Positions 15,818 to 52,413 are shown, counted from the first letter of the stretch. The stretch is DNA of 64,000 nt from an uncultured Candidatus Saccharibacteria bacterium (GCA_964469605.1 CAYXZA010000003.1:3721-67720); one strand, 5' to 3'. The notes: a model not told the origin generated them from the letters alone. Numbers and translations: made by a program.

Positions 15818-15908
15818 ATTATATCATTTTTAGATGTAAAAGTCAATAACAACCCTCTTTTGTTTTATTGATATAATATTTTAATCTAAAAATAATTTTA
15901 AAAACAAT
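15818..15908. repeat. Direct repeat copy 1 (~90 bp). It duplicates the gap upstream region.
   Basis: attatatcatttttagatgtaaaagtcaataacaaccctcttttgttttattgatataatatttt... is nearly identical to 17321-17410, with 3 differences. Confidence 0.85.
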
Positions 15909-15913
15909 AAAAG

Positions 15914-15957: not shown

Positions 15958-17295
15958 CTAGCGGCGAGTCTTAGCTCGGTGAGCAACTTCTTTGAGTTGT
16001 CCCTTGCCACGCTCGTGAGGTCGAACATAGGTCTCATTATCGGCGAGCATGATGCCATGCTCTTCTGCTCGCTTGCGTGATTCTGGCGTGGCCTTCTTGC
16101 CTTGCGGAAGTCGGCGGATATGCCAGATCACTTCGTGGCGAGAGATTTCACGAGAACGCTTGGTTGTGTCGGCATCCGCCTTTTCAATTTCCTCTTCCAA
16201 CTCTTGGAGGAGTAAGTCCACGTTTTCGAGTGAACGGATACGCGGAATGAAGAGGTCGAGGTTAAGAAAATGCTTTTTCTTCAGGATATTCTTGATCCTG
16301 TCGAGCACTCCTACGGCGATCGGTGGCTTTGGCATTTTCTCAACTGTCGTGATCGGAACCACGAGGTCGTAGAGTCGGAGAGCTTGAGTGAAGCGAAGGT
16401 ATTCATATAGAGCCACATTGTTGCGACGCTCGAAGAATTGGCGAACAGGCATGAGCCCGAGACCGTAGGAAGCATCCATTTCTCCTTTGATATCCAACGT
16501 CATGAAAACGTGGGCTGGGAAAGAAATTTCCGCACCTACAAATCTACTAATTCCAACTACTCGTTCGGTAGCTTTCGCTCCGATCTGGATGAGGGACTCC
16601 TTGTCTGACAGTCCGATGAAAGCGAACTGTGGAGATATGAACTCTGTCCAGCCAGGGATGAGTTCTCGAATTTCGCAGAAGTCCATGAAGACCCATGCTT
16701 GCGAGGGATCGTGGAGCATGCCATCTTGGAAGAAAGAGTTTTTGACTCCGTACTTCCGAAGGATGGCGAGCTCGTTGATCATATTGGTCGCGTCTTTGGC
16801 TGCTTGGATCGAGTGCTCCTCAATCATGTCTTTTGCTTCTTGTCCAAGCGTAGGGTGAACGAAGAGTTGAGAGGCGAGCCATTCAACTCTATTGACTTCA
16901 CGAACGAAATTCTCCAGACTACTGAACTTGGAATAGAACCAAGTTTCTGTTCCAGTGCCAGAGGCGGAGAGATCAATGTACGTCTTGAGAGTTGCCATGT
17001 TCTTTTCGCCCTTGTCCATTTCAGTTGCGAAGTATGCGGCTACTGCCTGCATTAGCATGTTGCTGCGATTGGTCGAAGCATTTTTGCCAATGCTGTTGAC
17101 TTTGATGCCATCGATCGTGTAGCAGACATCCATATAGGACTGTAGGGCACGATTGAAGTCTTGGTTTTTGACGTAGCGCGTATAGATATCACGCGCCAGT
17201 CTCTTAAGCGTATCGTAAGAGCAGTTCGCGCTGCGAACCAGCACTTGGACCTGCACCTTGAAGGTGAAGTTGGGAATGTCTCGCCATGTGAACAT
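15958..17295 (-). CDS. GC-rich foreign gene for a ~445-465-aa protein of unknown family. The C-terminus is basic and carries R-x4-H motifs (possible HEPN-like, speculative).
   Basis: Long intact ORF at ~50% GC. GGAGG lies 13 nt upstream of the ATG at 17295. The ORF-track start at 17355 falls inside the duplicated repeat. No RT (YxDD), RuvC/Zn-finger, or integrase motifs were seen. Confidence 0.55.
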   Translation of the reverse strand: MFTWRDIPNFTFKVQVQVLVRSANCSYDTLKRLARDIYTRYVKNQDFNRALQSYMDVCYTIDGIKVNSIGKNASTNRSNMLMQAVAAYFATEMDKGEKNMATLKTYIDLSASGTGTETWFYSKFSSLENFVREVNRVEWLASQLFVHPTLGQEAKDMIEEHSIQAAKDATNMINELAILRKYGVKNSFFQDGMLHDPSQAWVFMDFCEIRELIPGWTEFISPQFAFIGLSDKESLIQIGAKATERVVGISRFVGAEISFPAHVFMTLDIKGEMDASYGLGLMPVRQFFERRNNVALYEYLRFTQALRLYDLVVPITTVEKMPKPPIAVGVLDRIKNILKKKHFLNLDLFIPRIRSLENVDLLLQELEEEIEKADADTTKRSREISRHEVIWHIRRLPQGKKATPESRKRAEEHGIMLADNETYVRPHERGKGQLKEVAHRAKTRR

Positions 17296-17320: not shown

Positions 17321-17410
17321 ATTATATCATTTTTAGATGTAAAAGTCAATAACAACCCTCTTTTGTTTTATTGATATAATATTTTCATCTAAAATAATTT
17401 TTTAAAAACA
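17321..17410. repeat. Direct repeat copy 2 (~90 bp). This is the native upstream/promoter region of gap.
   Basis: Identical to 15818-15908 apart from 3 positions. It abuts the gap ATG at 17411. Confidence 0.85.
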
Positions 17411-18442
17411 ATGAAAAAAATCAAAGTTGCAATAAATGGTGCTGGTAGGATAGGAAGAGCTTTTCTCAAAATCGCTGAAAAAAGAGATGATTTGGAGGTG
17501 GTGGCATTAAATGATCTTGGAAATATAGATAACATTGCTTATCTTTTAAAATATGACACCGCTTATGGCAGAAGTGGTCTTGATGTAAAAGTGGGAGGAG
17601 ACAAAAAAACTATTTTAATTGATGGGAGAGAAGTTAAATTTGTGTCAGAAAAAGATCCAAAAAATTTACCTTGGAAAGATTTTGATATTGATGTGGTGGT
17701 TGAATCCACAGGGTTTTTCACAAGTTATGATGGAGCAAGAGCTCATATAGAAGCTGGAGCCAAAAAAGTTGTAATCTCTGCACCTGCAAAAGATGATCCT
17801 GTTTTAGATACCGATGGTATGATACTTATGGGGGTAAACTGTGATACTTTGAAAGATAAGATCGTTACTTCAAATGCTTCTTGCACAACAAATGCTGGTT
17901 CACCTGTTATTTCCATACTTCATAAAGAGATTGGTATAGAAAAAGCTATTTTAAATACTACTCATGCATATACAGGTAGTCAGTCGATAGTTGATGGTCC
18001 AAATGCTAAAGATTTTAAAGAGGGTAGAGCTGGGGCATCAAATATGGCACCAACTTCAACTGGTGCTGCAAAAGCTACTGCAAAAGTTATAACAGATTTA
18101 AAAGGTAAGTTTGATGGTATTTCAGTTAGGGTTCCTGTTATTGCAGGTTCTATTGCTGATATAACTTTCATTGCAAAAAGAAATACAACAGTTGAGGAGG
18201 TTAATAGTATTTTAAAGAAAGCATCACAAGATAAACATTGGCAGAAAATCTTTTCAGTTGTAGAAGATCCAATAGTATCTAGTGATATTTTAGGACTACC
18301 ATTTGCTTCTATTGCAGATCTTGGACTTACAAAAGTTGTCGATGGGAATCTGGTTAAAGTTATGGCTTGGTATGATAACGAAATGGGTTATACACACTCA
18401 CTTGTTGAGCATGTGATCAAAACTGGTGGTTTTATAGATTAA
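17411..18442 (+). CDS. gap: Glyceraldehyde-3-phosphate dehydrogenase.
   Basis: NAD-binding motif INGAGRIGRAF is present. Catalytic Cys motif ASCTTNA is present. The C-terminal segment WYDNEMGY is present. Confidence 0.9.
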   Translation: MKKIKVAINGAGRIGRAFLKIAEKRDDLEVVALNDLGNIDNIAYLLKYDTAYGRSGLDVKVGGDKKTILIDGREVKFVSEKDPKNLPWKDFDIDVVVESTGFFTSYDGARAHIEAGAKKVVISAPAKDDPVLDTDGMILMGVNCDTLKDKIVTSNASCTTNAGSPVISILHKEIGIEKAILNTTHAYTGSQSIVDGPNAKDFKEGRAGASNMAPTSTGAAKATAKVITDLKGKFDGISVRVPVIAGSIADITFIAKRNTTVEEVNSILKKASQDKHWQKIFSVVEDPIVSSDILGLPFASIADLGLTKVVDGNLVKVMAWYDNEMGYTHSLVEHVIKTGGFID

Positions 18443-23412: not shown

Positions 23413-24294
23413 ATGAAAACACTTAGAGAAACAATTTTAGATGCTGATAGCAGAAAAGTGGCTATTGGTCATTTTAATATATCAAACACAGAAGGACTTA
23501 AAGCTATTTTTAATTCCGCTAGAAATCTCAACCTTCCTGTTATTATTGGTGTATCTGAGGGAGAGAGAGATTTTATAGGTCCAAGACAGGTTAGGGATTT
23601 GGTTTTTGGATTAAGAGAAGAATTTGATTTTCCAATATATTTAAATGCAGATCATACATATTCATTTGAAAGGGTAAAAGAAGTTGTCCAGCTTGGTTAT
23701 GATTCTGTTATATTTGATGGTGCTAAACTTTCTTTTGAAGAAAACATTATAGAGACTAAAAAATGTTTTGATTTTATAAAAGATTTCAATAAAAAAAATA
23801 ATAAAGATATTTTGCTTGAAGCAGAATACGGGTATATAGGACAATCATCAAAAATTTTAGATAAAGTTCCTGATGAAGTAAAAATAGACCAAGATTCTTT
23901 AACAGATCCAGAAAAAGCATTTGAGTTTGTTTCTAGAACTGGTATAGATATGTTTGCTCCAGCAGTGGGAAATATTCACGGAATGCTTTCCTCTGGCATT
24001 GATCCAAGTTTAGATATTGATAGGATTTTTAATATAAAAGAAAAAGTCAAAATACCACTTGTCCTGCATGGTGGTTCTGGAAATAGTAAGGAAGATTTTC
24101 AGAAGGCTATAAAGTCTGGTGTTTCTATTGTTCATATAAATACAGAGCTTAGGGTTGCTTATAAAAATGGAATTTTGGAAAGTTTAAAAGAAAATCCAGA
24201 TGAAGTTGCACCATATAAGATGATGAAAAAATCTGTTGAAAATATGCAAAATCTAGTTTCTGAAAAATTAAAACTATTCAATTTTTTAGATTAG
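23413..24294 (+). CDS. fba: Class II fructose/tagatose-bisphosphate aldolase.
   Basis: VAIGHFNISNTEGLKAIFNSARNLNLPVIIGVSEGE is present. PLVLHGGSG is present. These are class II aldolase metal-binding motifs. Confidence 0.8.
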   Translation: MKTLRETILDADSRKVAIGHFNISNTEGLKAIFNSARNLNLPVIIGVSEGERDFIGPRQVRDLVFGLREEFDFPIYLNADHTYSFERVKEVVQLGYDSVIFDGAKLSFEENIIETKKCFDFIKDFNKKNNKDILLEAEYGYIGQSSKILDKVPDEVKIDQDSLTDPEKAFEFVSRTGIDMFAPAVGNIHGMLSSGIDPSLDIDRIFNIKEKVKIPLVLHGGSGNSKEDFQKAIKSGVSIVHINTELRVAYKNGILESLKENPDEVAPYKMMKKSVENMQNLVSEKLKLFNFLD

Positions 24295-26097: not shown

Positions 26098-26135
26098 AAC
26101 TATAATCTATCATAAATTTAATATTTTTAAATCAC

Positions 26136-26163
26136 TTGACAAATATTGTGAGTATACTATAAT
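26136..26163 (+). promoter_or_regulatory. Consensus sigma70 promoter (TTGACA-N16-TATAAT) driving a small non-coding transcript.
   Basis: ttgaca at 26136-26141 and tataat at 26158-26163. Confidence 0.5.
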
Positions 26164-26169
26164 TGATAG

Positions 26170-26326
26170 TGTGAAAGGGTTGAGACGGTTGGCAACTGAG
26201 ACCGTTGACTGATGCCAAAAGCAAAAGTCAATCTTGGGGCTTATGCTCCAGTCAGATTCGCCTAATCCCGCCCTTTCACAAACTTTCAGTGCCGCCTCTC
26301 GGAGGAGCGGCACTTTCCTTTTTTGT
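26170..26326 (+). ncRNA. Candidate small RNA (~150 nt) of unknown class. It has a closing helix gtgaaaggg/ccctttcac and an intrinsic terminator.
   Basis: Bounded by a consensus promoter and a strong terminator (gtgccgcctctcggaggagcggcac then tttccttttttg). No ORF. SRP, 6S, RNase P and tmRNA signature motifs were not recognised. Confidence 0.35.
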
Positions 26327-26400
26327 ATAAAAATCTGTGTAATAACAATCAACTTTTAATTTTGAATACAAAATTAAAGTCCAAAATTGTATCCAATTTT

Positions 26401-26518
26401 GTGACCCTACGGGGAATCGTCCGCCAGTAAAATTTTGTCGTCACAAAATTTTCTCGTGTCCGCGACTCGCGACCTAGTCTGTTGACTAGGTGCCCGCTCC
26501 GTCTTTCGATTCCCCACG
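26401..26518 (-). other. tRNA-Glu trailer element. It has an anti-T-arm motif, hairpins, and a duplicate of the tRNA-Glu 3' end.
   Basis: gtgaccctacggggaatcg (26401-26419) is identical to 26608-26626 inside tRNA-Glu. The inverted partner cgattccccac lies at 26508-26518. Internal hairpins gtcgcgagtcgcggac and ctagtctgttgactag are present. Confidence 0.4.
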
Positions 26519-26568
26519 AAATTGCATAATATGCAATTTCTGTATTGTCACAGGATATTCAAAAACAA

Positions 26569-26590
26569 AAAATCCCTACTGGGAATTTTT
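26569..26590 (-). terminator. Terminator hairpin after tRNA-Glu (minus strand).
   Basis: Minus-sense aaaaattcccagtagggatttttt. The stem resembles the aattcccg.aagggaatt hairpin that follows tRNA-Tyr. Confidence 0.45.
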
Positions 26591-26605
26591 GTTAAGAATA
26601 TCAAC

Positions 26606-26680
26606 TGGTGACCCTACGGGGAATCGAACCCCGATTTAAGCCTTGAAAAGGCCGTGTCCTAACCGTTAGACGATAGGGCC
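26606..26680 (-). tRNA. tRNA-Glu (anticodon TTC), CCA encoded.
   Basis: Reverse complement is ggccctatcgtctaacggttaggacacggccttttcaaggcttaaatcggggttcgattccccgtagggtcacca. Anticodon loop ttttcaa. T arm cgggg-ttcgatt-ccccg. Confidence 0.85.
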
Positions 26681-26769
26681 AAAAACTTTACATTTAAAAA
26701 TATAACATCTTTTTATATATATTTCAATTGTTTGTATCATTTCAAAAATTTTGATATATTTTCTATGTT

Positions 26770-26846
26770 GCGCGCTTAGCTCAGTTGGCTAGAGCGTCTC
26801 ATTGACGTTGAGAAGGTCATAGGTTCAAGTCCTATAGCGTGCACCA
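26770..26846 (+). tRNA. tRNA-Val (anticodon GAC), CCA encoded.
   Basis: Acceptor gcgcgct/agcgtgc. Anticodon stem tctca/tgaga with loop ttgacgt. T arm atagg-ttcaagt-cctat. The 3' end is cca. Confidence 0.85.
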
Positions 26847-26861
26847 ATAGCAACTTTCTAG

Positions 26862-27237
26862 TCAACAAGCCATGTAAATGGCTTTGAAAGCGTTGCAAAC
26901 ACTGTGTTTTTCTTGCCCATAAAAAAGTTCAAGAAGATCTTCTCGAGGTAGAAGTTCAATTCTTGCATAGATTTGGTTGTGGCTATGATTTGAGCCACTT
27001 TTTCCATGTTGTTCGAGAAACTCCGACATTAGCAGGATCGTACTCTTTTCAGCCTCAATAAGCTTCCTGTAGTTTCTCAATGTCGCCCTGTACTTGCTTG
27101 TGTTCGGTCTTGGCTTTTAGCGGATCTACCTTGAATCCCTCGATAAAACATGAATCTTTCTCATCGAGAATAAACTCATTGATGCGAATGTGCTTCACCG
27201 CAAGTACTTTCTTTTTGCCATTTAAGGAGTTGAGCAA
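26862..27237 (-). pseudogene. Fragmented tyrosine recombinase (integrase) remnant next to tRNA-Val.
   Basis: Two short frame-shifted ORFs. The C-terminal fragment SGSNHSHNQIYARIE resembles the integrase box II (lGHs...T..Y.h) carrying the catalytic Tyr. The position next to a tRNA 3' end fits an integration site. Homology is weak. Confidence 0.35.
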
Positions 27238-27283
27238 TACTCAGTGTTCTTTAAAGTTCATCGTTAAGTTACCTATTAACTTC

Positions 27284-27312
27284 TTGACAAGATTGTAGTA
27301 TAGATGTATAAT
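27284..27312 (+). promoter_or_regulatory. Perfect consensus sigma70 promoter (TTGACA-N17-TATAAT) driving the 4-gene island operon.
   Basis: ttgaca at 27284-27289 and tataat at 27307-27312. The leader that follows contains the hairpin ttggccttttggccaa. Confidence 0.5.
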
Positions 27313-27375
27313 GGTGATTGAGTTTACGTTCTTTGTTTGGCCTTTTGGCCAACCCCTTAGCCTGAGGAGGGCAAC

Positions 27376-27717
27376 ATGACCAACACGATCGTTATCAACG
27401 GCGTCACCATCAGTGGTGGTGGCCAAAACGTCACCATTCGCAATGGCAAGGTGATCGTCGATGGTAAGAATGTTACGCCGGATGCGAAGGAGATCAACAT
27501 CTTCGTCACTGGCAACGTCCAATGTATCGAGGCTGACGCTTGTCAGAAGATTTCCGTCACCGGAGATGCTGGCAGTGTCATTACCCAGAGTGGCAATGTG
27601 GAAGTTGGCGGCGCCATCGGTGGCAACGTCAACACGATGTCGGGAGACGTCGACTGTGGCGGCGCCATCGGTGGCAACGTCAACACGATGTCGGGGGACA
27701 TCAAGTCGCACCAGTAA
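27376..27717 (+). CDS. Beta-solenoid repeat protein (bactofilin/DUF583-like polymer-forming fold, tentative).
   Basis: 113-aa ORF at ~50% GC. SD gaggaggg lies 6 nt upstream of the ATG. Repeated G-x-V/I-x-x-G-x-V units occur, including a tandem GGAIGGNVNTMSGD(V/I) repeat. Confidence 0.45.
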   Translation: MTNTIVINGVTISGGGQNVTIRNGKVIVDGKNVTPDAKEINIFVTGNVQCIEADACQKISVTGDAGSVITQSGNVEVGGAIGGNVNTMSGDVDCGGAIGGNVNTMSGDIKSHQ

Positions 27718-28051
27718 GGTCAAGTATTTTACAACTCGGTTACGAGCGCTTCAGTGATGGAGCGCTCTTTCTTTTGTGATGGTTGTATTTTGAGAATGAC
27801 CGGATGCACTTTGATGGGTTCTTTTTGCTCGGATGCTTTGATCGCTTTGACTTGCTCCTATGTAAAGAAAAGTGCCATGTTCTATTTCAGTATCGAATTG
27901 GCAGTGAGGAATGCAAGGTTGGTTTCCATTTTTTTTGAGGTGGTTTCATGTTTAAAGTTGACGGAACTATTATAGTATTTTACAATAGAGCCTCCAACAT
28001 GGGATTTGCACATGTTGGTTGAAGATCTTTGAAAGTGAAAGGAGGATTTGC

Positions 28052-28780
28052 ATGAATGAAGACACATGTGAGGTGTTGCGTGGACATTTTGAAGATTGTC
28101 TACAACATCTTGGACAAGTTTTCGCCTCAAAAATAAGAAAAGGTTCGCGAGGGGCGGCACAGGCAAAAAAGCCTATAGCTGAATTTTGCGGAGTCACGAT
28201 TGATTCCGTAACTCGATGGCTTCATGGTACTGGATCGTTACCTGTTGGCAAGTTATACATCAAGTTGATGTGTTTTCTCGACATGACAGGTTATCGAGTG
28301 ATCGAGTTGGAGAATATGTCGAAACCTCGTCGAAACTTTATTGAATTTATCGGCTATGGACTCTTTTCCAGTGATCAGGCTGCAGAGTTTCTCGGCTATC
28401 GCTCCACATCCACTCTTTATCAAGTTCTGCAAGGTAATCACCGCATAAGTGAGGACAAGGATCAGAAGATGTGGGATTTGTTTAAGGAAAGAGTGCGGGA
28501 ATTGCAGCAGGAGAAAGAAAGGTTGCAAAAGTTGTACCGATTGGATATTCCGTTGAAGACGGAGTTGTCCAAAATTTCGGGAAGACAAATGTCAGCTAGT
28601 CGCTCAGAAGCGATAGTCAGTATCATGAAAGGTTTGCTTGCGTTGATTGATGAGAGTTCTATTGAGAAACTTTTTGACGACGGGCAAGCAGATCTGAAAG
28701 AATCATCTGATACTATACTCCACCTATTGGCGCACTTGAGTGCCTTACATTCCCGTTTGGTCATGTCCGAGAAACAGTAG
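28052..28780 (+). CDS. Helix-turn-helix DNA-binding protein with two XRE-like HTH segments and a coiled-coil C-terminus.
   Basis: SD aaggagg lies 6 nt upstream of the ATG at 28052. The ORF-track start at 28019 is a TTG codon. HTH-like segments: IAEFCGVTIDSVTRWLHG and AAEFLGYRSTSTLYQVLQG. Confidence 0.5.
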   Translation: MNEDTCEVLRGHFEDCLQHLGQVFASKIRKGSRGAAQAKKPIAEFCGVTIDSVTRWLHGTGSLPVGKLYIKLMCFLDMTGYRVIELENMSKPRRNFIEFIGYGLFSSDQAAEFLGYRSTSTLYQVLQGNHRISEDKDQKMWDLFKERVRELQQEKERLQKLYRLDIPLKTELSKISGRQMSASRSEAIVSIMKGLLALIDESSIEKLFDDGQADLKESSDTILHLLAHLSALHSRLVMSEKQ

Positions 28781-28794
28781 AAAGGAGGTAGTTA

Positions 28795-29055
28795 ATGTCG
28801 AACGACCAATGTTACCAAGCTGTCGTCGATAAGATCATTCCTGGTGGCAAGCATGGCCCCTATGCAGTTGCGCGTTCTGAGAAACTTGGTTCAATCACCT
28901 TCTCGCTTGAAGGCAAGGTCTGGCAAGAGAGAGATTGGCCAGAACCTGGGACATGCGTGATGTTATCACAAGTCAGGAAGAAGCGCGCCGGGTGGCGCGC
29001 ACAACATGGGCGGTTCATTGAACCATCCGACGTCCAAACAACCCAGCAACAGTAA
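28795..29055 (+). CDS. Hypothetical small protein (86 aa).
   Basis: SD aaaggagg is present upstream. GC-rich. No recognised motif. Confidence 0.4.
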   Translation: MSNDQCYQAVVDKIIPGGKHGPYAVARSEKLGSITFSLEGKVWQERDWPEPGTCVMLSQVRKKRAGWRAQHGRFIEPSDVQTTQQQ

Positions 29056-29067
29056 GGAGAAAAAGCA

Positions 29068-29868
29068 ATGAGCAGTCAGAAAATCGAGAAAGTGGCACTG
29101 AAGGACTTGAAGATTAGTCTGTTTGTTCGCAAACAGCTGAATCAAGAACATGCACTGTATCTTGCAGAGCTCATCGAGAATGGTACCCAACTCCCTCCAA
29201 TCCAAATCACAAGTGATTATGTGGTGATCGATGGACGGCATCGTATCGAGGCTCACGGTCTTAATAATCAAAATGAGATCATGGCTGAGATTGTGGATAA
29301 TATTGTAACTGATAGTGAACTTATTTCTATGGCCTACAGGGCCAATATAGGTGGTCCGCTTCCACCATCGCAGCATGACACGGAGTATACGGTTATGTTA
29401 CTTCTTGATCGTGGAGAGAATATAAAGCGCATCGCCTGTATGCTAGGTCTTCCTATTAATCTGGCACGCAAGTACATCAACTCAGTGCAGTCGAAGGTTT
29501 TGCGTAAAAAGTTGATAAAGGCTATTAGAGGGATCACTGAGGATGGTATTACTATCGATACGGCCGCCGATAAGTACGGGGTGAATGCTGATTCCATCAA
29601 ACAAATGATTTCCGGCCAAAATAGGAAGTGTAATAGTGATTTTTTCTCAGATGTTATGAAAGGTCTCAATGTGACCTATAAATCGGTGAATTTGAAGAAA
29701 GCAGCCCTTTTCAAAGAATTAATGCAAAAATATGATGATAGTGATGTGACAGATGAGCAGGTGGAAGAAGTTTTTGCGCGTATCGAAAAGCTTCATAATC
29801 GGTCCGCTCATCTTGTTAATGAATGGAAGAGGCGGTTCGAGGCGAAAGGTAAGATTGCAAGGTTGTAG
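29068..29868 (+). CDS. ParB/Srx-fold (ParB N-terminal domain) protein.
   Basis: SD aaggag is present upstream. N-terminal region VALKDLKISLFVRKQ...LPPIQITSDYVVIDGRHRIEAHGL matches the ParB N-terminal domain pattern (arginine-containing H/RR box after vIDG). Confidence 0.6.
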   Translation: MSSQKIEKVALKDLKISLFVRKQLNQEHALYLAELIENGTQLPPIQITSDYVVIDGRHRIEAHGLNNQNEIMAEIVDNIVTDSELISMAYRANIGGPLPPSQHDTEYTVMLLLDRGENIKRIACMLGLPINLARKYINSVQSKVLRKKLIKAIRGITEDGITIDTAADKYGVNADSIKQMISGQNRKCNSDFFSDVMKGLNVTYKSVNLKKAALFKELMQKYDDSDVTDEQVEEVFARIEKLHNRSAHLVNEWKRRFEAKGKIARL

Positions 29869-29890
29869 TAGTTCTTTTGTGTAAGTATGG

Positions 29891-29930
29891 GCCCGAGGTA
29901 TCACACTCTATGTGTACCTCGGTTTTTTAT
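29891..29930 (+). terminator. Rho-independent terminator at the end of the island operon.
   Basis: cccgaggtatcacactctatgtgtacctcgg is followed by ttttttatatttttt. Confidence 0.5.
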
Positions 29931-30727
29931 ATTTTTTATAATTGCACCAATTGTTTCAAATAAATAAAGTTTTATTCACCAATATTTCTGGTGTAGTTAT
30001 CTAAAAAATACTCCCATCCTTTCAAAAGAAAAATCCATATTCGCCAAATCAAAATTAGCAAAGAGTTGTTTTTTGTGAAATATTTAATAAAGTAATTGGT
30101 GATAAGGATATTCAATTAATAATTTTGAAAATAGGTGTGTAAGATGGAGAAATGTATTATTAAAATATTATTTTATATATAGCAGAAACCCTCGGCTTGT
30201 TGAGCCGAGGGTTGTTTTAGATCTCTAAACTTGCCCCTTAGTTATTCGACTCGATGTTAGCATCGAGAGCACAGCCACTCTTTTCTGATGATGTGGCGTT
30301 AGAATGTGCTAGGAAGTTCATTTTTCGAATGAGCCTCGGGTATTTTTTGACCCGAACACCTTTTTTAGTGGTGCTCCTTCTTCAATTCAGAGTTACTGTG
30401 GAGTGATTTTTGTCTAACATCTCACACCCCAGGGCTTAGAAATCTTTGGCTTAATTTATGTTTGCGCAGGCCTTTGCGCTTTTAGTTACTTCATTTAATG
30501 TACCCTCCTTTTAAGGTACATCATTAATGATATCATATTATTAATATTATGTCAAGTTTTTAAATAATAATTTTTTAACATAAATTAAACCAATCTTAAA
30601 GTGGTTTTTATAAATATTTAATTTAAGTTATCTGGTTAAAAAAATCAAAATTTTTTAATTACTTTAATCAGTGGGCGAATGTATTATTATAATTCGCCCA
30701 AAATAATCATATTTTTATAGCATTTAT

Positions 30728-30979
30728 CTATTTGATTGAAGTTTCTGTTGGTTTTCTCATAAACCATTCACCGGCAAAACTTTTTTTCTTTTTTCCGGTA
30801 TTGATAGTTACTGTATAATCAGCTGAAGAAATTTTTCCGTTTTTATTATCTCTTTTTCTTAGAGCTACTATCTCAAATGGTCCATTTCCATATTTATTTA
30901 TCATTTCAGGTAGCATAGAAGGATAAGATTTTTTGTCCCAATATACAAATTCTCCAAGTGTTAAGTTCTTGATTATCAA
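30728..30979 (-). CDS. Hypothetical small protein (83 aa).
   Basis: SD aaaaggag lies 5 nt upstream of the ATG. The downstream terminator hairpin gggcgaatgtattattataattcgccc is present. No family recognised. Confidence 0.35.
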   Translation of the reverse strand: MIIKNLTLGEFVYWDKKSYPSMLPEMINKYGNGPFEIVALRKRDNKNGKISSADYTVTINTGKKKKSFAGEWFMRKPTETSIK

Positions 30980-31031
30980 CTTAGACTCCTTTTGTAATTA
31001 TGCATATTATATAAATATATGTCAAATCTTG

Positions 31032-31153
31032 TGGGCAAGGAGGGACTTTACCTCGAAAAAACTAGTCTCAGTCAGACTAGTTTTTTCTGGTCACCAGTTT
31101 GTCGACAAGCACTGCTGTGCTCGTAGACCGACAAACTGTTCTCGTCCCTCTCA
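31032..31153 (-). other. tRNA-Leu trailer element (distal copy). It has a tRNA-Leu 3'-end copy, a terminator hairpin, an anti-T-arm motif and a covarying stem-loop.
   Basis: tgggcaaggagggact (31032-31047) matches the tRNA-Leu(TAG) 3' end. Hairpin aaaaaactagtctcagtcagactagtttttt is present. Minus-sense gagggacgagaac and ggtctacgagcacagcagtgcttgtcgac are present. Confidence 0.4.
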
Positions 31154-31165
31154 TAAAGCTCCGCT

Positions 31166-31318
31166 TTATTCGAGAAATACCCCTCAGCTTTGCTGTGGGG
31201 ATTGGTAAAAGAGTGTCGGCGGTGGCCGACTCCTATACGAATATAAGAGCCATGGTTCGCCTCGCCAATACCTCGTTTGCTCTGCCAGCGAGGATCAGGC
31301 GAGGCGACTGCTTTTATT
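31166..31318. repeat. GC-rich structured repeat family, copy A (~150 bp).
   Basis: ttattcgagaaatacccctcagctttgctgtgggg...cgcctcgccaatacctcgtttgctctgccagcgaggatcaggcgaggcgactgcttttatt is ~96% identical to 51429-51581. Strong internal hairpins are present. Confidence 0.8.
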
Positions 31319-31478
31319 CTTGCTCCAACTAAAAAGCCGCCTAAGCGACTTTTTAGTGTGGACGAACAGTGTGGCTTTCCGAACTAGGGAAGTATAAGGG
31401 TTAAATAAGTTTAAGTATTAAAGAATTAAGTTTCATAAACGAGAAAGCCACGAGTGGTCTGTGACTTCTCGTGGCTTG

Positions 31479-31718
31479 TTAGTCGCCAATTGCGTTTTGA
31501 CGACCTGGCTGGGATTGGTGTTTCCAGTTCTTGGCTCCCTCATCAGCCAGGTACTTCAGGGCTCTGATGGAGTTTTTTCCATTTCGCATTGCTTGTCGCA
31601 ATGTTGCAGTGAAAAGTTCCTCACCTCCAATTTCCTCTTGAAAGGTTTTACCACCAGCAATAATGGTGATGGTTCCTTTCATTTCAAAACCGCCCGGTAG
31701 TTCATCTTTGGGTAACAT
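31479..31718 (-). CDS. Hypothetical small protein (79 aa).
   Basis: SD gaggagg lies 10 nt upstream of the ATG. Terminator gccacgagaagtcacagaccactcgtggc is present downstream. No family recognised. Confidence 0.4.
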   Translation of the reverse strand: MLPKDELPGGFEMKGTITIIAGGKTFQEEIGGEELFTATLRQAMRNGKNSIRALKYLADEGAKNWKHQSQPGRQNAIGD

Positions 31719-31844
31719 TTTCGCTGTGCCTCCTCATTTGAGTATAGCACATAAATTGCACTATGTCAAATAAGTTCGGAAAACCACCCATCTTATTCAA
31801 AATGAGTTAAAAAATATGTTGAGAAATAAAGTTATTTCGTAAGA

Positions 31845-31862
31845 TGGGCAAGGAGGGACTCG
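31845..31862 (-). repeat. Duplicate of the tRNA-Leu(TAG) 3' end (proximal copy).
   Basis: tgggcaaggagggactcg is identical to 31990-32007 in the tRNA gene. Confidence 0.7.
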
Positions 31863-31989
31863 GTTGCAACTTTTGTTTTTCGTGAACTTAAAACAAAGTC
31901 GCGACCCCGCCTCACTTCTTTCTGGCTTTCTCGTCCCTCTCCAAACACACAAAAAATCACCTCAAGAAAGAAGTGATTTTTAGGTGTTG

Positions 31990-40488: not shown

Positions 40489-40885
40489 CAAAAATAATTC
40501 CCGTAAGGGAATTTTTTGGTGTGCAGGGAATAAACCTCTTGGGAGAGGTTTATGTTAGGATTTGAACGACGGAGCTAAAAATTTTCAGTAGAAAATTTTG
40601 CGAGTCGGTGCCTAGCCTAAAATTTTTTGACGAAAAAATTTTAAGGCGAAGGAAAACTCCTACCCGGCGCACAAAAAGAAAACCCGAAAGGGTTTTTCTT
40701 TTTGTCGACCGGAGCAAAGCATCGCTTTGCGAGTAGGATTTGAACAGAAAAGCGGTCTACAAATTCAGCAGAATTTGTCGCTTTTCTGGCGACTAGGTTT
40801 TTTCTGAGTGGCGACGAAGAAAAAATGTAGTCAAAATTCCTACCCGGCGCACAAAAATAATTCCCGAAAGGGAATTTTTTGATTT
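40489..40885 (+). repeat. Three tandem tRNA-Tyr trailer units. Each ends in a copy of the tRNA 3' end (tcctacccggcgcaca) plus a terminator-like hairpin.
   Basis: tcctacccggcgcaca occurs at 40473-40488 (the tRNA itself), 40659-40674 and 40848-40863. Each is followed by aattcccg.aagggaatt or gaaaacccgaaagggttttc. Anti-T motif aggatttgaac occurs at 40557 and 40736. Covarying stem-loop at 40755-40782. Confidence 0.75.
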
Positions 40886-45376: not shown

Positions 45377-45387
45377 CTTTTATATTT

Positions 45388-45447
45388 TTATTCGAGAAAT
45401 ACCTCGCAGCTTTGCTGCGAGGATCAGGCGAGGTGACTGCTTTTATT
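45388..45447. repeat. GC-rich structured repeat family, copy B (internally deleted, ~60 bp).
   Basis: ttattcgagaaatacctcgcagctttgctgcgaggatcaggcgaggtgactgcttttatt keeps both ends of the ~150-bp family. The 3' end, ttttatt, supplies the TAA stop of dnaE on the minus strand. Confidence 0.7.
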
Positions 45448-48400
45448 CTAATATTTTTATTTTATCAACAAGTATATTTTTATTTCCATTTTTTTCAGAG
45501 ATCTTACCTTTAACCACTACACAAGTATCTTTGTTTATAAAATCTTTAAACTCCAAACATACTTTTGGAAAAAGTATTAGTTCAATGGAATCACTTATAT
45601 CTGAAAGTTTAACAAAATACATTTTGTCTCCTTTTTTTGTCTCTATTTCTTTTATTTCTTCTATTATTCCACCAACTATAACTTCTTTGTTATTTTTGGA
45701 AACTTCTTTTACTTTTTTAATATCAAGATCTCTTTTACCTAATCTTTCCTTAAATTGATCTAGTGGGTGGCCTGAAAGATAGAGTCCTAGAAGTTCTTTC
45801 TCCCAAAGCAGTTCATTTGCGGTATTGTATTTTTCACTTTTTTTGATATCAAGTTTTAAATTATTTCCAAAGTCACTAAAAAGAGAGTTTTGGTTTTCTT
45901 CTGGTTTTGATTGTCTTGAAAATTCAAGCATTTTTTCCAAATTATCAAGCAAGTCGTGTCTTTTAAAATCTATTGATATTGAATCTAGTGCACCAGATTT
46001 TATGAGTGCTTCAAGAGATTTTTTATTTAGATTTCTATCATTTATTCTTGAAAGAAAATCTTCTAATGATTTAAAATTTCCAGATTTTTTTCTTTCTTCT
46101 ATTATCATATGAGATATATTCTCTCCAAAATTTTTTATAGTAGTTAACCCAAATCTTATTGTTTCTTTTTCAGCATCTTTGACTACTGTAAAATCTGAAT
46201 ATGATTGGTTTATGTCTGGTGGTAGTATAAGTATTCCCATTCTCTTACATTCAGCAACTGATATTGCTACTTTATCTACATCTCCATCGTGGTGTGTTAA
46301 AACAGATGCCATATATTCGGCAGGGAAGTTGGCTTTAAGATATGCTGTCTGATAGGCAACTCTTCCATAAGAAACTGAGTGAGCTTTGTTAAAACCGTAT
46401 GCGGCAAAAGGTTCTATCCAAGTCCAAAGCTGTGCAGCTTTTTTCTCTGGCCAATTTGAATACTGCACACAACCTTTTATAAACTTTTCTTTTTGCATAG
46501 CCATTTCTTCAGGAATCTTTTTTCCAACAGCTTTTCTAAATTTATCTACTTCACCCCAAGAGTATCCGGCTAGTTTGTGAGCCATCATAAGTAGATCATC
46601 TTGATAAACCAAAATACCATAAGTTTTTTTAAGTATTGGTTCTAATGCTTGATCTAAATAGGAGATCTTTTGAGGGTTATGTTTTCTCTCAATGTAGTCT
46701 GGTATAAACTGAATAGGGCCTGGTCTGTATAAAGCCACCATAGCATTTATATCGTGTATTGTTGTTGGTTTTAGTTCAACTAAAAACCTTGTCATACCAT
46801 CTCCATTTAACTGAAATAAATCTTCGGTTTCTCCTTTTGCGAGTATTTTAAAAGTTTTTTTATCATCGATTGGTATATCATCTTGTTTTAGATTAACTCC
46901 TTTTGTCTTTGAAATTAAAGTTATTGTATCTGCAATAATAGAGAGGTTTGAAAGTCCAAGAAAGTCAAACTTTAACAAACCAGCTTCTTCTATACTATAC
47001 ATATCATATTGAGTTATTATTTTTCCTTCACCTTTTGGATCGTATTGTAAGGCAGTATAATCAGTTATTTCAGTGGGAGATATAACAACTCCGGCAGCAT
47101 GAATACCCATATGTCTTGCACACCCTTCTATTTTCATTGCCATATCTATTATTATCTTTACATCTTTTTCTTTTTTATATAAATCTTTCAATTCTTCTGT
47201 TTCTTCAAGAGCTCTTTCTATTGTCATTGGAAATCCTTGAGAACCCATTGGTATAAGTTTTGCTATCATATCACCGAGGGAGTATGGAAAACCAAGTGCT
47301 CTTGCTGTATCACGAACAGATCCTCTTGCTGCCATTGTTCCAAATGTTCCTATTTGGGCAACTTTATCAGATCCATATTTTCTTTTTGCATATTCAACCA
47401 TTTCGTCTCTTCTATCGTCAGCATAATCCATATCAATATCTGGTGCTGATGGTCTGTCAGGGTTTAAGAATCTTTCAAACGGTATTTCATATTCAATAGG
47501 GTTGATTTTTGTAATACCAGATAAATATGTTGTTAGTGATCCAGAAACTGATCCTCTGATATTTGTTAGTATCCCATTTTCATCAGCATATTTTAGTAGA
47601 TCAGCAACAACTAGAAAGTATGGTGAATAACCTTTGTTTTTTATAACTTCAAGTTCGTAGTCCAGTCTTTTTAAAATTTCTTCTGTCTTTTCTATGTTTC
47701 TTTTATCAAGCCCTTCGTATGCTATTTTTTTCAACTCTTCATCTGCACTAAGGCCACTTTCTATTTTAAATGCTGGAAAAACCCATTTTCCAAGTTCTAT
47801 TTCAATGTTACATTTATCTGATATTTCTTTGTTATTTAGTATTAAATTTTCTTGATCTTTAAAACTATTTAAAATCTCACTTTTTTTCCTGAAAGACAAA
47901 TCATATTCCTCGTCATCTTCTCTTATTTCTCCATTTGATTGTATTGAAAGTAGTGTTTTCCAAGCCTTCCTGTCATCTTTTTCAAGATAATAAACTTCTT
48001 GACTCGCAAATGCTTTAATATTGTTCTTATTTGCAAAATCAATCACAGCATCTGCTTTTTCAATTAGATTTTTTATTTCACTGTGTTTACTTATTTCTAT
48101 ATAAAAATCATCTCCAAATAATCTTTTATAGAAATCAGCTTTTATTCCAGCTTTTTCGTAATCTTTTATTTCAATAGCTTTTGATATGTCACTGTTTAGA
48201 AAAGGGGCTATACAAATAAGACCTTCTTTGTATTTTTCCAAAGTACCACTGTCTATTCTCGGTTTATAATAAAAACCCTCAAGGTGTGATACGGTAACGA
48301 GTTTAATAAGATTTTTATAACCAGTATAATCTTTTGCAATTAAAAGTAGTCTCTCTCTTGGTTTGTCTATACTACCATCTTTATCTTTCATTTCTCTAGG

Positions 48401-51421: not shown

Positions 51422-51428
51422 TTTAAAT

Positions 51429-51581
51429 TTATTCGATAAATACCCCTCAGTTTTGCTGTGGGGATTGGTAAAATAGTGTTGGCGGTGGCCGACTCCTATA
51501 CGAATATAAGAGCCCTGGTTCGCCTCGCCAATACCTCGTCTGCTCTGCCAGCGAGGATCAGGCGAGGTGACTGCTTTTATT
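51429..51581. repeat. GC-rich structured repeat family, copy C (~150 bp).
   Basis: ~96% identical to 31166-31318. It lies between convergent genes. Its 3' end supplies the TAA stop of the minus-strand dehydrogenase-like gene. Confidence 0.8.
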
Positions 51582-52413
51582 TAGATTTTTTGTCTCTAAT
51601 ATTTGTATTTACTTTGAGCACAGATTCTAATAGCTCCGGTGTATAACCGTTTTCTTTTGAAGCTTTGACTATTGCATTTACATCTTTTGGAAGACATTTT
51701 CCTCCGAAACCTCTATTGTTTTCAAATACTGTGCTATGTGATCTACCCATTCTTCCATCTAAAAGCCAAAGTTCTCTAAGTTCATTGTAGTCAACTCCAA
51801 GATTTTCAGCTATATCAAAGAATTCATTACAAAAAGTAACTTTTGTTGCTAAAAATGCATTTTCCATATATTTGCATAATTCTGCTGTTGTGCTGTCTGT
51901 TTGGTAAAACCTGGGTTCAGGGCCATAAACTTTTTTAAAGAAAGTTAGTATTTCTTTTCTGGTTTCTTTTTCTCCACCTATTATTACAAAATCGTGTTTT
52001 TTCATATCTGTTGGGTCTGGGTATCCTTTCCAGAATGGTATTTCATATTTTCCTTCACCTATATACTCCGGACTAAAACATATATTTTTGCCAGTTTTTT
52101 TAATAAGCCTTTCTGTTGTTTTTGGTGGTATTGTGCTTTTTATAAGTATATTTTTAGCATCGATCCAAGAAACAACTTCTTCTACAAGTGAGGTGTCACA
52201 AGATCCATCGTCTTTCATTTGTGTTGGCACACAAACAACTGCCAAATCAGCTTTGCTTACTTTTTTCTTATCTTTGAATTCTTTATAGTATGGGTCATAA
52301 ACACAAACATCAAAATGGTCTTTAAAAAAGTTATAAACTGCTTTACCAACATAACCATAACCAATAATAGCTACTCTTTCTTTTATTTTTTCTTCTTTTT
52401 TGATCTTTTTCAT
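51577..52413 (-). CDS. Short nucleotide-sugar dehydrogenase family protein (UDP-glucose/GDP-mannose dehydrogenase-like; lacks the C-terminal domain).
   Basis: N-terminal Rossmann motif VAIIGYGYVGKAV is present. VCVPTQ is present. Central-domain segment ELCKYMENAFLATKVTFCNEF is present. Confidence 0.55.
   Translation of the reverse strand: MKKIKKEEKIKERVAIIGYGYVGKAVYNFFKDHFDVCVYDPYYKEFKDKKKVSKADLAVVCVPTQMKDDGSCDTSLVEEVVSWIDAKNILIKSTIPPKTTERLIKKTGKNICFSPEYIGEGKYEIPFWKGYPDPTDMKKHDFVIIGGEKETRKEILTFFKKVYGPEPRFYQTDSTTAELCKYMENAFLATKVTFCNEFFDIAENLGVDYNELRELWLLDGRMGRSHSTVFENNRGFGGKCLPKDVNAIVKASKENGYTPELLESVLKVNTNIRDKKSK

Follow-up and report, generated by a model that had tools for sequence, protein, structure and literature searches.

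The window, by which we mean the whole stretch of DNA analysed here (64,000 nucleotides, ~30% GC), belongs by its genes and their closest relatives to the Paceibacteria/Parcubacteria of the Candidate Phyla Radiation (CPR). On its minus strand lie tsaD (PF00814; 24904–26097) and tRNA-Glu(UUC) (26606–26680), the latter accompanied by a tRNA-Val gene on the plus strand (both within 26606–26846). Between tsaD and tRNA-Glu, on the plus strand, is a gene for a small RNA (sRNA) of ~150 nt, and its placement beside tsaD and the tRNAs is as the sequence-only reading had described it. For comparison we used a near-identical public contig, L001 (GCA_013558375.1 JACCDG010608616.1), and two homologous loci, L082 from ENA and L178 from Logan.

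A small RNA gene divergent from tsaD

The promoter of the sRNA (26136–26163, plus strand) consists of a −35 box, TTGACA (26136–26141), a 16-nt spacer and a −10 box, TATAAT (26158–26163), and agrees with the consensus at all 12 positions. Chance alone would give 0.10 perfect TTGACA/TATAAT sites per window, and two were found, the second at 27284 (27284–27312). The promoter stretch cacttgacaaatattgt...ctataat is kept in L082 and L178. Judging from promoter geometry, which is identical in both homologues, transcription would start on the plus strand at 26169–26171, 6–8 nt past the −10 box, where the first pairs of the closing helix P1 lie.

The gene ends in an intrinsic terminator (26288–26324, plus strand) made up of a stem (26288–26314), an apex, UCUCGGAGGAGC (26296–26308), and the U-rich tail TTTCCTTTTTT. 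Positions 26288–26294 pair with 26308–26314, and 26296–26299 with 26304–26307 around a CGGA loop. This terminator is present in both the minimum-free-energy and the centroid folds, and a bulged C within the stem is the likely reason why a simple terminator scan left it out. The apex, which bears GGAGGAG and contains two overlapping GGA motifs, is identical in four of four sequences and is enclosed by an invariant block (~26295–26309), while the base of the stem covaries, with four pairs changed on both sides. Both the promoter and the terminator are retained in L082 and L178. The perfect promoter and the strong terminator with its T-run, both proposed from the sequence alone, are borne out. 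The same reading had stated that there was no open reading frame (ORF), which needs qualification: an ATG ORF of 17 codons, a GTG ORF of 13 codons at the 5′ end and two TTG ORFs of 41 codons overlap the sRNA, and it is their peptides that lack conservation in the L082 and L178 homologues.

On the other side of this promoter region, tsaD has an extended −10 element, TGATAGATT (26104–26112, minus strand), 6 nt before its ATG and back-to-back with the sRNA promoter. The element (TGnTAGATT) is conserved as TGTTAGATT in L082 and L178. It probably serves as a working promoter, which would fit the mostly leaderless gene starts of the host. Most host genes have TATAAT 7–9 nt before the ATG without a Shine-Dalgarno site and look leaderless, for example those starting at 23413, 24313, 20423, 45443 (minus strand), 52541 and 57979.

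A Shine-Dalgarno-like motif was found in only 5 of 45 window ORFs (28052, 29068, and, on the minus strand, 15958, 6972 and 7675), and three of these (28052, 29068 and 15958) lie within GC-rich, apparently foreign segments. One such segment is a GC-rich island (41–43%; ~26850–31950) immediately beyond the tRNA-Val 3′ end. Shine-Dalgarno sites precede its genes, and its proteins include a 113-aa repeat protein (phrog_3163), a ParB-like/HTH protein (29068–29868) and a weak HTH match (28019–28780); neither an integrase nor a duplication of tRNA-Val was found in it. Elsewhere, two direct copies of a 95-nt repeat (15818–15912 and 17321–17416, 95% identical) enclose a segment of 44% GC, which carries the Shine-Dalgarno-bearing gene 15958–17295 (minus strand) and may be a small inserted element.

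Across the Paceibacteria, tsaD is syntenic with tRNA-Glu(UUC) and tRNA-Val(GAC). In two relatives, L010 and L014, the order is tRNA-Val on the minus strand followed by tRNA-Glu and tsaD on the plus strand, with 2–3 nt between the end of tRNA-Glu and the tsaD ATG. The window keeps this tRNA-Val/tRNA-Glu/tsaD order, but with 508 bp (26098–26605) between tRNA-Glu and tsaD. Therefore, the sRNA lies in a lineage-specific insertion of 508 bp, which holds, besides the opposite-strand sRNA, a 19-nt copy of the tRNA-Glu 3′ end, a palindrome and the tRNA's own terminator. On the far side of the insertion, sequence comparison delimits a tRNA-linked module (26401–26520, minus strand) that begins with the reverse complement of the tRNA-Glu T-loop and T-stem and ends with the 19-nt copy (26401–26419). 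Of the earlier suggestion that the RNA is island-associated, the part that stands is the lineage-specific insertion beside a tRNA-3′-end duplication. The GC-rich, phage-like island itself starts past tRNA-Val, and in L082 and L178 the RNA remains linked to tsaD with neither a tRNA nor the island next to it.

Structured modules of ~100–130 nt were also seen downstream of other tRNAs. Two features mark them, each present at ~22 of 122 surveyed tRNAs: the reverse complement of the tRNA's own T-loop and T-stem 20–90 nt downstream, and a copy of the tRNA's own 3′ end 110–190 nt downstream, often then followed by a terminator. In the window they are at 26401–26520 (−), 40540–40672 (+), 40720–40855 (+), 60340–60460 (+), ~31845–31985 (−) and ~6790–6885 (+), and they recur in L003, L010, L012, L014, L021, L034, L042, L043, L048, L062, L072 and others. 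They fall into at least two sequence classes, one with GACGGAGC, GCGAGYCG and a GACG-loop hairpin and the other of the form AAGGTGTACTGA-hairpin(CTGTAAG)-TCGA. The modules stand in tandem after tRNA-Tyr, and none matches Rfam at gathering thresholds. They could be T-loop-class integration scars or functional RNA; the tyrT/rtT repeats of E. coli resemble them. At the undivided junction of L010 and L014 (~3926–4003), 3′ processing of the tRNA would release a leaderless tsaD mRNA in a manner resembling tRNA punctuation.

Fold, conserved core and distribution of the RNA

The core of the sRNA spans ~110 nt (26170–26280, plus strand, as are all elements below) and consists, in order, of helix P1, an internal loop, P2, P2b (CUGA/UCAG) and a three-way junction, after which come the linker and the terminator. 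From the junction extend P4 and P3, the latter interrupted by an A-rich internal loop and topped by a small cap hairpin, so that the molecule as a whole is Y-shaped. The 5′ strand of P1, GUGAAAGGGU (26171–26180), pairs with 26270–26279 over 10 bp, and the 9-bp closing helix noticed earlier (gtgaaaggg/ccctttcac) sits within it. P2 and P2b share a 5′ strand, GGUUGGCAACUGA (26187–26199), that pairs with 26252–26267. The junction strand GACC and P3 (GUUGAC..GUCAAU), with its internal loop and apical hairpin, occupy 26200–26233, and the P4 hairpin (UUGGGGC UUAU GCUCCAG) occupies 26234–26251. The 3′ strands of P2b, P2 and P1 (UCAG..GCCUAAUC..GCCCUUUCAC; 26252–26279) follow from the fold and from covariation. 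Sequence comparison places a variable single-stranded linker at 26280–26287, between the core and the terminator; it reads AAACUUUC(A), also given as AAACUUUCA, in the window, CCUA in L001 and UAUAC in both L082 and L178. In the window strain the region 26275–26289 repeats the P1 3′ strand (CUUUCA-CAAA-CUUUCA), giving the P1 5′ strand a second potential partner over 6 bp; L001 is without the repeat.

The whole transcript, which is GC-richer than the genome, folds with −60.5 kcal/mol (z = −4.06), and none of 200 shuffles was as stable. The L082 and L178 homologues each fold alone into the same architecture (z = −6.40 and −6.20, respectively). In an alignment of the window, L001, L082 and L178, which comprise only three species- or strain-level lineages with few independent events, the alignment being fitted to the model, 97.5% of the cells form standard pairs, compared with 34–46% when the partners are slid by 1–3 columns; 13 pairs show double compensatory changes, and none of 500 shuffles reached the observed pairing or covariation score. 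P1 is paired in 100% of cells, with three pairs changed on both sides. Helix 2 is paired in 96%, with two such pairs, and in the CUGA/UCAG segment of L178 an A-U pair has become G-U. P4 contributes three doubly changed pairs, and its loop differs among the homologues (UUAU, CUUAUA and UAGUUACU).

The most conserved block is the junction together with P3 (GAC(C/G)GUUGAC, AUGCC and GCAAA(A/G)GUCAAU), and the remaining invariant sequence is concentrated in UCAG, UA(A/G)UCCCG and the terminator apex. The P3 stem does not vary among the homologues, while its cap loop does (AAAA, CUAUAAA and, in L178, GAAA). No conserved single-stranded seed of at least 7 nt was found among the homologues. Upon inspection, tRNA-like, K-turn or box C/D-like and hammerhead-like readings were set aside, the motifs seen in the window being unconserved in L082 and L178. 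Loop-loop kissing between P3 and P4 is possible in L082 and not in the window or L178.

Scanning the whole window with Rfam 15 at gathering thresholds returned nine tRNAs only, and ARAGORN likewise reported tRNAs and no tmRNA. When the cutoff was relaxed to E ≤ 10 for the window locus, a tighter slice of it and the L082 homologue, only sub-threshold chance matches to unrelated sRNAs appeared. For two homologues, models of SRP in its small and large forms, 6S, RNase P, tmRNA, riboswitches and ribozymes gave no match at E ≤ 10, in agreement with the sequence-only reading, which had recognised none of the first four. The RNA has its own promoter and its own intrinsic terminator and is without a conserved ORF, the generic marks of a stand-alone sRNA. 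As far as sequence analysis can tell, this locus is a real, separately transcribed gene for a structured RNA that fits no known family.

Searching GTDB species representatives with tsaD yielded 80 Paceibacteria loci, in which nhmmer and blastn with the sRNA recovered the source strain L001 only. The closest relatives of the window's tsaD in a large protein collection led to two contigs, L082 and L178, whose tsaD proteins are 77% identical to that of the window; the tsaD of L178 is 99% identical to that of L082. Both carry a homologous RNA with the same promoter and the same fold, divergently upstream of tsaD, which confirms conservation and synteny; the divergent sRNA/tsaD arrangement is common to the window, L001, L082 and L178. 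In L082 and L178 a gene for a tRNA-dependent cyclodipeptide synthase (CDPS; PF16715) is convergent with the sRNA, leaving tsaD as the sole constant neighbour. The CDPS gene lies at 1059–1694 (+) in L178 and 3–377 (+) in L082, and no homologue of it was found within the 64-kb window. A link between the sRNA and CDPS was rejected, as four other CDPS loci are without the RNA.

We built two covariance models, R1 and, from the four sequences, R2. Across ~0.8 Mb of Paceibacteria DNA around tsaD and CDPS, both recovered only the window, L001, L082 and L178, and R2 found zero new members in 795 kb. The sRNA is absent from ~85 other Paceibacteria tsaD loci and is missing at the corresponding site in L002 (tsaD 70% identical), L083–L085 (65%), L086 (63%) and L179 (62%). 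In a metagenome scan with one exact pattern, CTGAGACNRTTGAC..GTCAAY..TCAG, which is too strict in that L178 reads CTGGGAC where the pattern has CTGAGAC, 10 matches were found, all high-GC and coding-like and none fitting the covariance model. Two pattern scans of IMG/VR and blastn against phage records produced nothing real, and the covariance models found nothing on the pattern-matched viral and metagenomic contigs. Within a search space of tsaD and CDPS neighbourhoods plus the one metagenome pattern scan, the family looks narrow.

Two of the loci without the sRNA have other small units upstream of tsaD. In L179, an unrelated candidate sRNA (4150–4298, minus strand) has an extended −10 promoter, a strong terminator and a multi-hairpin fold (z = −5.5), and belongs to no Rfam family. 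In L002, a small hairpin and terminator (~3860–3935, minus strand) occupy the place of the sRNA, divergent from tsaD and on its upstream side, and show no detectable homology to the sRNA.

Divergence of the RNA among close relatives

L082 and L178 are close relatives, with tsaD genes 98.7% identical in nucleotides (94.5% at four-fold degenerate sites), identical promoters (100%) and a downstream flank that is 99% identical. Their sRNAs are 78% identical. Of 157 sRNA columns, 27 differ (17%), compared with 20 of 1628 in the flank (1.2%), an odds ratio of 17 (Fisher p = 8e-18). The divergent patch coincides with the gene, from P2 to just beyond the terminator, and the helices are kept by compensatory changes. 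The window and L001, which are 99.9% identical over 13.2 kb, differ in 13 columns; 8 of these fall at 26281–26295, in the linker and the terminator stem, and none falls in 7 kb of core genes. Overall, the sRNA changes ~15 times faster than its flanks. By these comparisons of sequence, it is evolving faster than the local neutral proxy with its scaffold preserved.

Diversifying selection or repeated replacement of alleles, the latter in short patches, is one reading of this hypervariability; conversion from unseen paralogues would serve as well, and so would transcription-associated or hairpin-templated mutation in place of selection. Elsewhere in the window, a 154-nt GC-rich, hairpin-rich repeat occurs at 31165–31318 and 51428–51581 (95% identical), with a partial copy at 45387–45449. 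Read on the minus strand, it finishes with a hairpin resembling a terminator, and one copy lies directly 3′ of the gene 51577–52413 (minus strand). Two of the few differences between the window and L001 are within or beside this repeat.

Rapid divergence is familiar from RNAs that control plasmids and mobile elements. CopA, RNA I, RNA-OUT and the type I antitoxin RNAs have a strong constitutive promoter, compact stem-loops and an intrinsic terminator, and their loops and stems diversify rapidly among close relatives. By analogy, the sRNA would resemble them in promoter, stem-loops, terminator and fast divergence. It differs in that no complementary target transcript, replicon, transposase or toxin ORF came to light for it, and its GAAA cap in L178 is not suggestive of loop-loop kissing.

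Candidate functions

The explanation that we place first, and to which we give about an even chance, is that the locus represents a new, narrow sRNA family, a stand-alone gene of ~150 nt whose product acts in trans through its conserved core. A consensus sigma-70 promoter would drive transcription from the first pairs of P1, and the intrinsic terminator would end it. The product would be a long stem (P1/P2/P2b) capped by a three-way junction with hairpins P3 and P4. It may work through this folded core and the terminator apex, binding or scaffolding a protein or some other macromolecule, with linear base pairing to mRNAs not its main action. Peripheral helices, loops and linker would be free to change, and compensation would preserve the helices. 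The gene would have arisen or arrived in the 508-bp insertion that splits the ancestral tRNA-Glu/tsaD junction, and the promoter region, arranged back-to-back, would be common to it and tsaD.

That the gene is expressed, that its product acts in trans and that it binds a protein are proposals to which the sequence comparisons lead us. We infer action through the core and apex because the junction and internal loop are invariant, the caps are variable, a seed of at least 7 nt is lacking and there is no cis gene: in none of the three genomes does a same-strand gene lie downstream of the sRNA. The invariant junction, variable caps and lack of a seed or cis gene likewise argue against a seed-pairing sRNA or a riboswitch. 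RNAduplex runs of the sRNA against the 5′ regions of window genes were dominated by genes of the GC-rich island and were uninformative. In outline the RNA recalls the bacterial Y RNAs (YrlA), which have ~110 nt, a long stem of 5′ and 3′ ends carrying a multi-helix module, and a scaffold mode of the kind proposed here. It differs from them in having no tRNA-like T-arm motif on inspection and no Rfam match to a Y RNA; no rsr/Ro gene was seen among the handful of window proteins scanned against protein families.

A cis role is unlikely in our estimation. Here the sRNA would be an antisense or insulator unit for tsaD, set between tsaD and an upstream unit on the same strand as tsaD, namely tRNA-Glu with its module in the window or CDPS in L082 and L178. 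Convergent transcription and the hairpin would block or pair with read-through, and the back-to-back promoters may compete for RNA polymerase. The constant divergent link to tsaD with its highly conserved shared promoter region favours such a role, as does the ancestral tRNA-Glu → tsaD order, which suggests co-transcription; moreover, an antisense partner changes automatically with the sRNA, and fast sequence change would be tolerated. Hints of an overlapping transcript from the opposite strand exist at the sequence level, namely the upstream same-strand units and weak terminators on the minus strand. However, tsaD is equipped with a conserved extended −10 of its own and tRNA-Glu with its own terminator (~26568–26591), and in L082 there is no clear sign that the sRNA terminator works in both directions. 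A covarying three-way junction with an invariant core exceeds what interference or antisense pairing needs.

We regard as equally unlikely an origin from a small integrative element inserted at the 3′ end of tRNA-Glu. The sRNA would then be what such an element left behind or brought with it, or would serve as an attachment target, and rounds of integration and excision would swap the 3′ part of the gene and so generate variable alleles. The 508-bp insertion, specific to the lineage, contains a 19-nt duplicate of the tRNA-Glu 3′ end, and the variation begins past the P1 5′ strand and extends to the 3′ end of the gene. The nearby GC-rich island, with Shine-Dalgarno-bearing genes and matches to phrog_3163 and ParB-like proteins, also contains the window's only other perfect promoter. 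Against this, the RNA of L082 and L178 is linked to tsaD without tRNA, module or island nearby and has a downstream flank that is 99% identical between the two, no integrase is nearby, and nothing similar turned up in phage records or IMG/VR.

That the RNA is an orphan ligand-sensing or self-cleaving element, whether an aptamer of the riboswitch kind joined to a terminator or a ribozyme of a new type, is decidedly doubtful. In its favour are the three-way junction, whose own nucleotides are invariant while the loops at the periphery vary, and the terminator 8–10 nt past P1; purine-type riboswitch aptamers similarly have a P1 that closes a three-way junction with two hairpins, a conserved junction and a terminator downstream. 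The sRNA is unlike them in being larger, with an extra P2/P2b stem, and in having no cis gene and no apparent antiterminator. Inspection of the sequences by eye revealed no conserved alternative antiterminator pairing, and no known riboswitch or ribozyme model fits. A riboswitch calls for a regulated gene on the same strand, and all three genomes lack one downstream: in the window there are the tRNA-linked module and convergent tRNA-Glu, and in L082 and L178 the convergent CDPS.

Another suggestion of the sequence-only reading was a housekeeping RNA, 6S or SRP/4.5S, that has diverged in a reduced genome. Extended here to RNase P and tmRNA, that idea is by now largely refuted, and we consider it highly improbable despite the perfect promoter, a GC content above that of the genome, paired 5′ and 3′ ends and a core about the size of 4.5S RNA. 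The sRNA does resemble SRP RNA (4.5S, ffs, RF00169) in its ~110-nt core, paired ends, stand-alone gene, strong promoter and GC-richness within an AT-rich genome, but it is not a single rod, it lacks the helix-8 GNRA tetraloop with symmetric and asymmetric loops, and it is a fast-evolving RNA of a tiny clade with no covariance-model match at E ≤ 10. An SRP domain IV was sought in the fold and rejected, the P3 loop (AAAA, CUAUAAA or GAAA) being without the flanking motifs. With 6S RNA (ssrS, RF00013 and related families) it shares a closing stem, independent transcription and candidacy as an abundant sRNA, but in place of a central bubble or extended rod it has a ~110-nt core with a three-way junction. 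Neither a 6S-like central bubble nor the loops of domain IV are present in the Y-shaped fold, two homologues match no housekeeping model at E ≤ 10, ARAGORN reports no tmRNA, ~85 related Paceibacteria tsaD loci are without the RNA, and it evolves faster than its flanks, which is the opposite of a housekeeping RNA.

Least credible is a tiny protein gene, either an ATG ORF (17 codons in the window, 18 in L082, both beginning at an aligned ATGCC) or a leaderless 5′ GTG ORF of the sort that a host using leaderless mRNAs might translate: we reject it because frames shift between the homologues, indels placing GTCAAT and other motifs in different frames with unrelated peptides, and in addition the 5′ GTG ORFs have 13 versus 8 codons and unrelated sequences, a Shine-Dalgarno site is lacking, and the substitutions are compensatory in helices, not codon-like. 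The housekeeping and micro-ORF readings are both effectively excluded.

As a stand-alone gene, the sRNA is ordinary in kind; what is notable is its clean covariation, its datable origin and its structure-preserving divergence. For the last of these we offer a speculation that we think rather improbable, though less so than an aptamer or ribozyme, namely that the sRNA confers specificity in a system of genetic conflict or recognition, serving for example as a target, a decoy or an identity tag. Phages, mobile elements or the symbiont's host would contest the RNA, the junction scaffold and the GGAGGAG apex would stay fixed, and the peripheral helices would be driven past the neutral rate. If this were true, the locus would be a hypervariable structured RNA in CPR bacteria without a reverse transcriptase or a CRISPR array.

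To our knowledge, very few non-housekeeping RNAs have been characterised in bacteria of the Candidate Phyla Radiation. The sRNA divergent from tsaD offers a clean case, with a consensus promoter and terminator, a junction backed by covariation, a datable insertion and ~15-fold faster change. If the pattern of change reflects mutation, it would be a natural instance of transcription- or hairpin-linked hypermutation with compensatory repair; if it reflects selection, the sRNA would be part of a conflict or specificity system in organisms that are not yet culturable.
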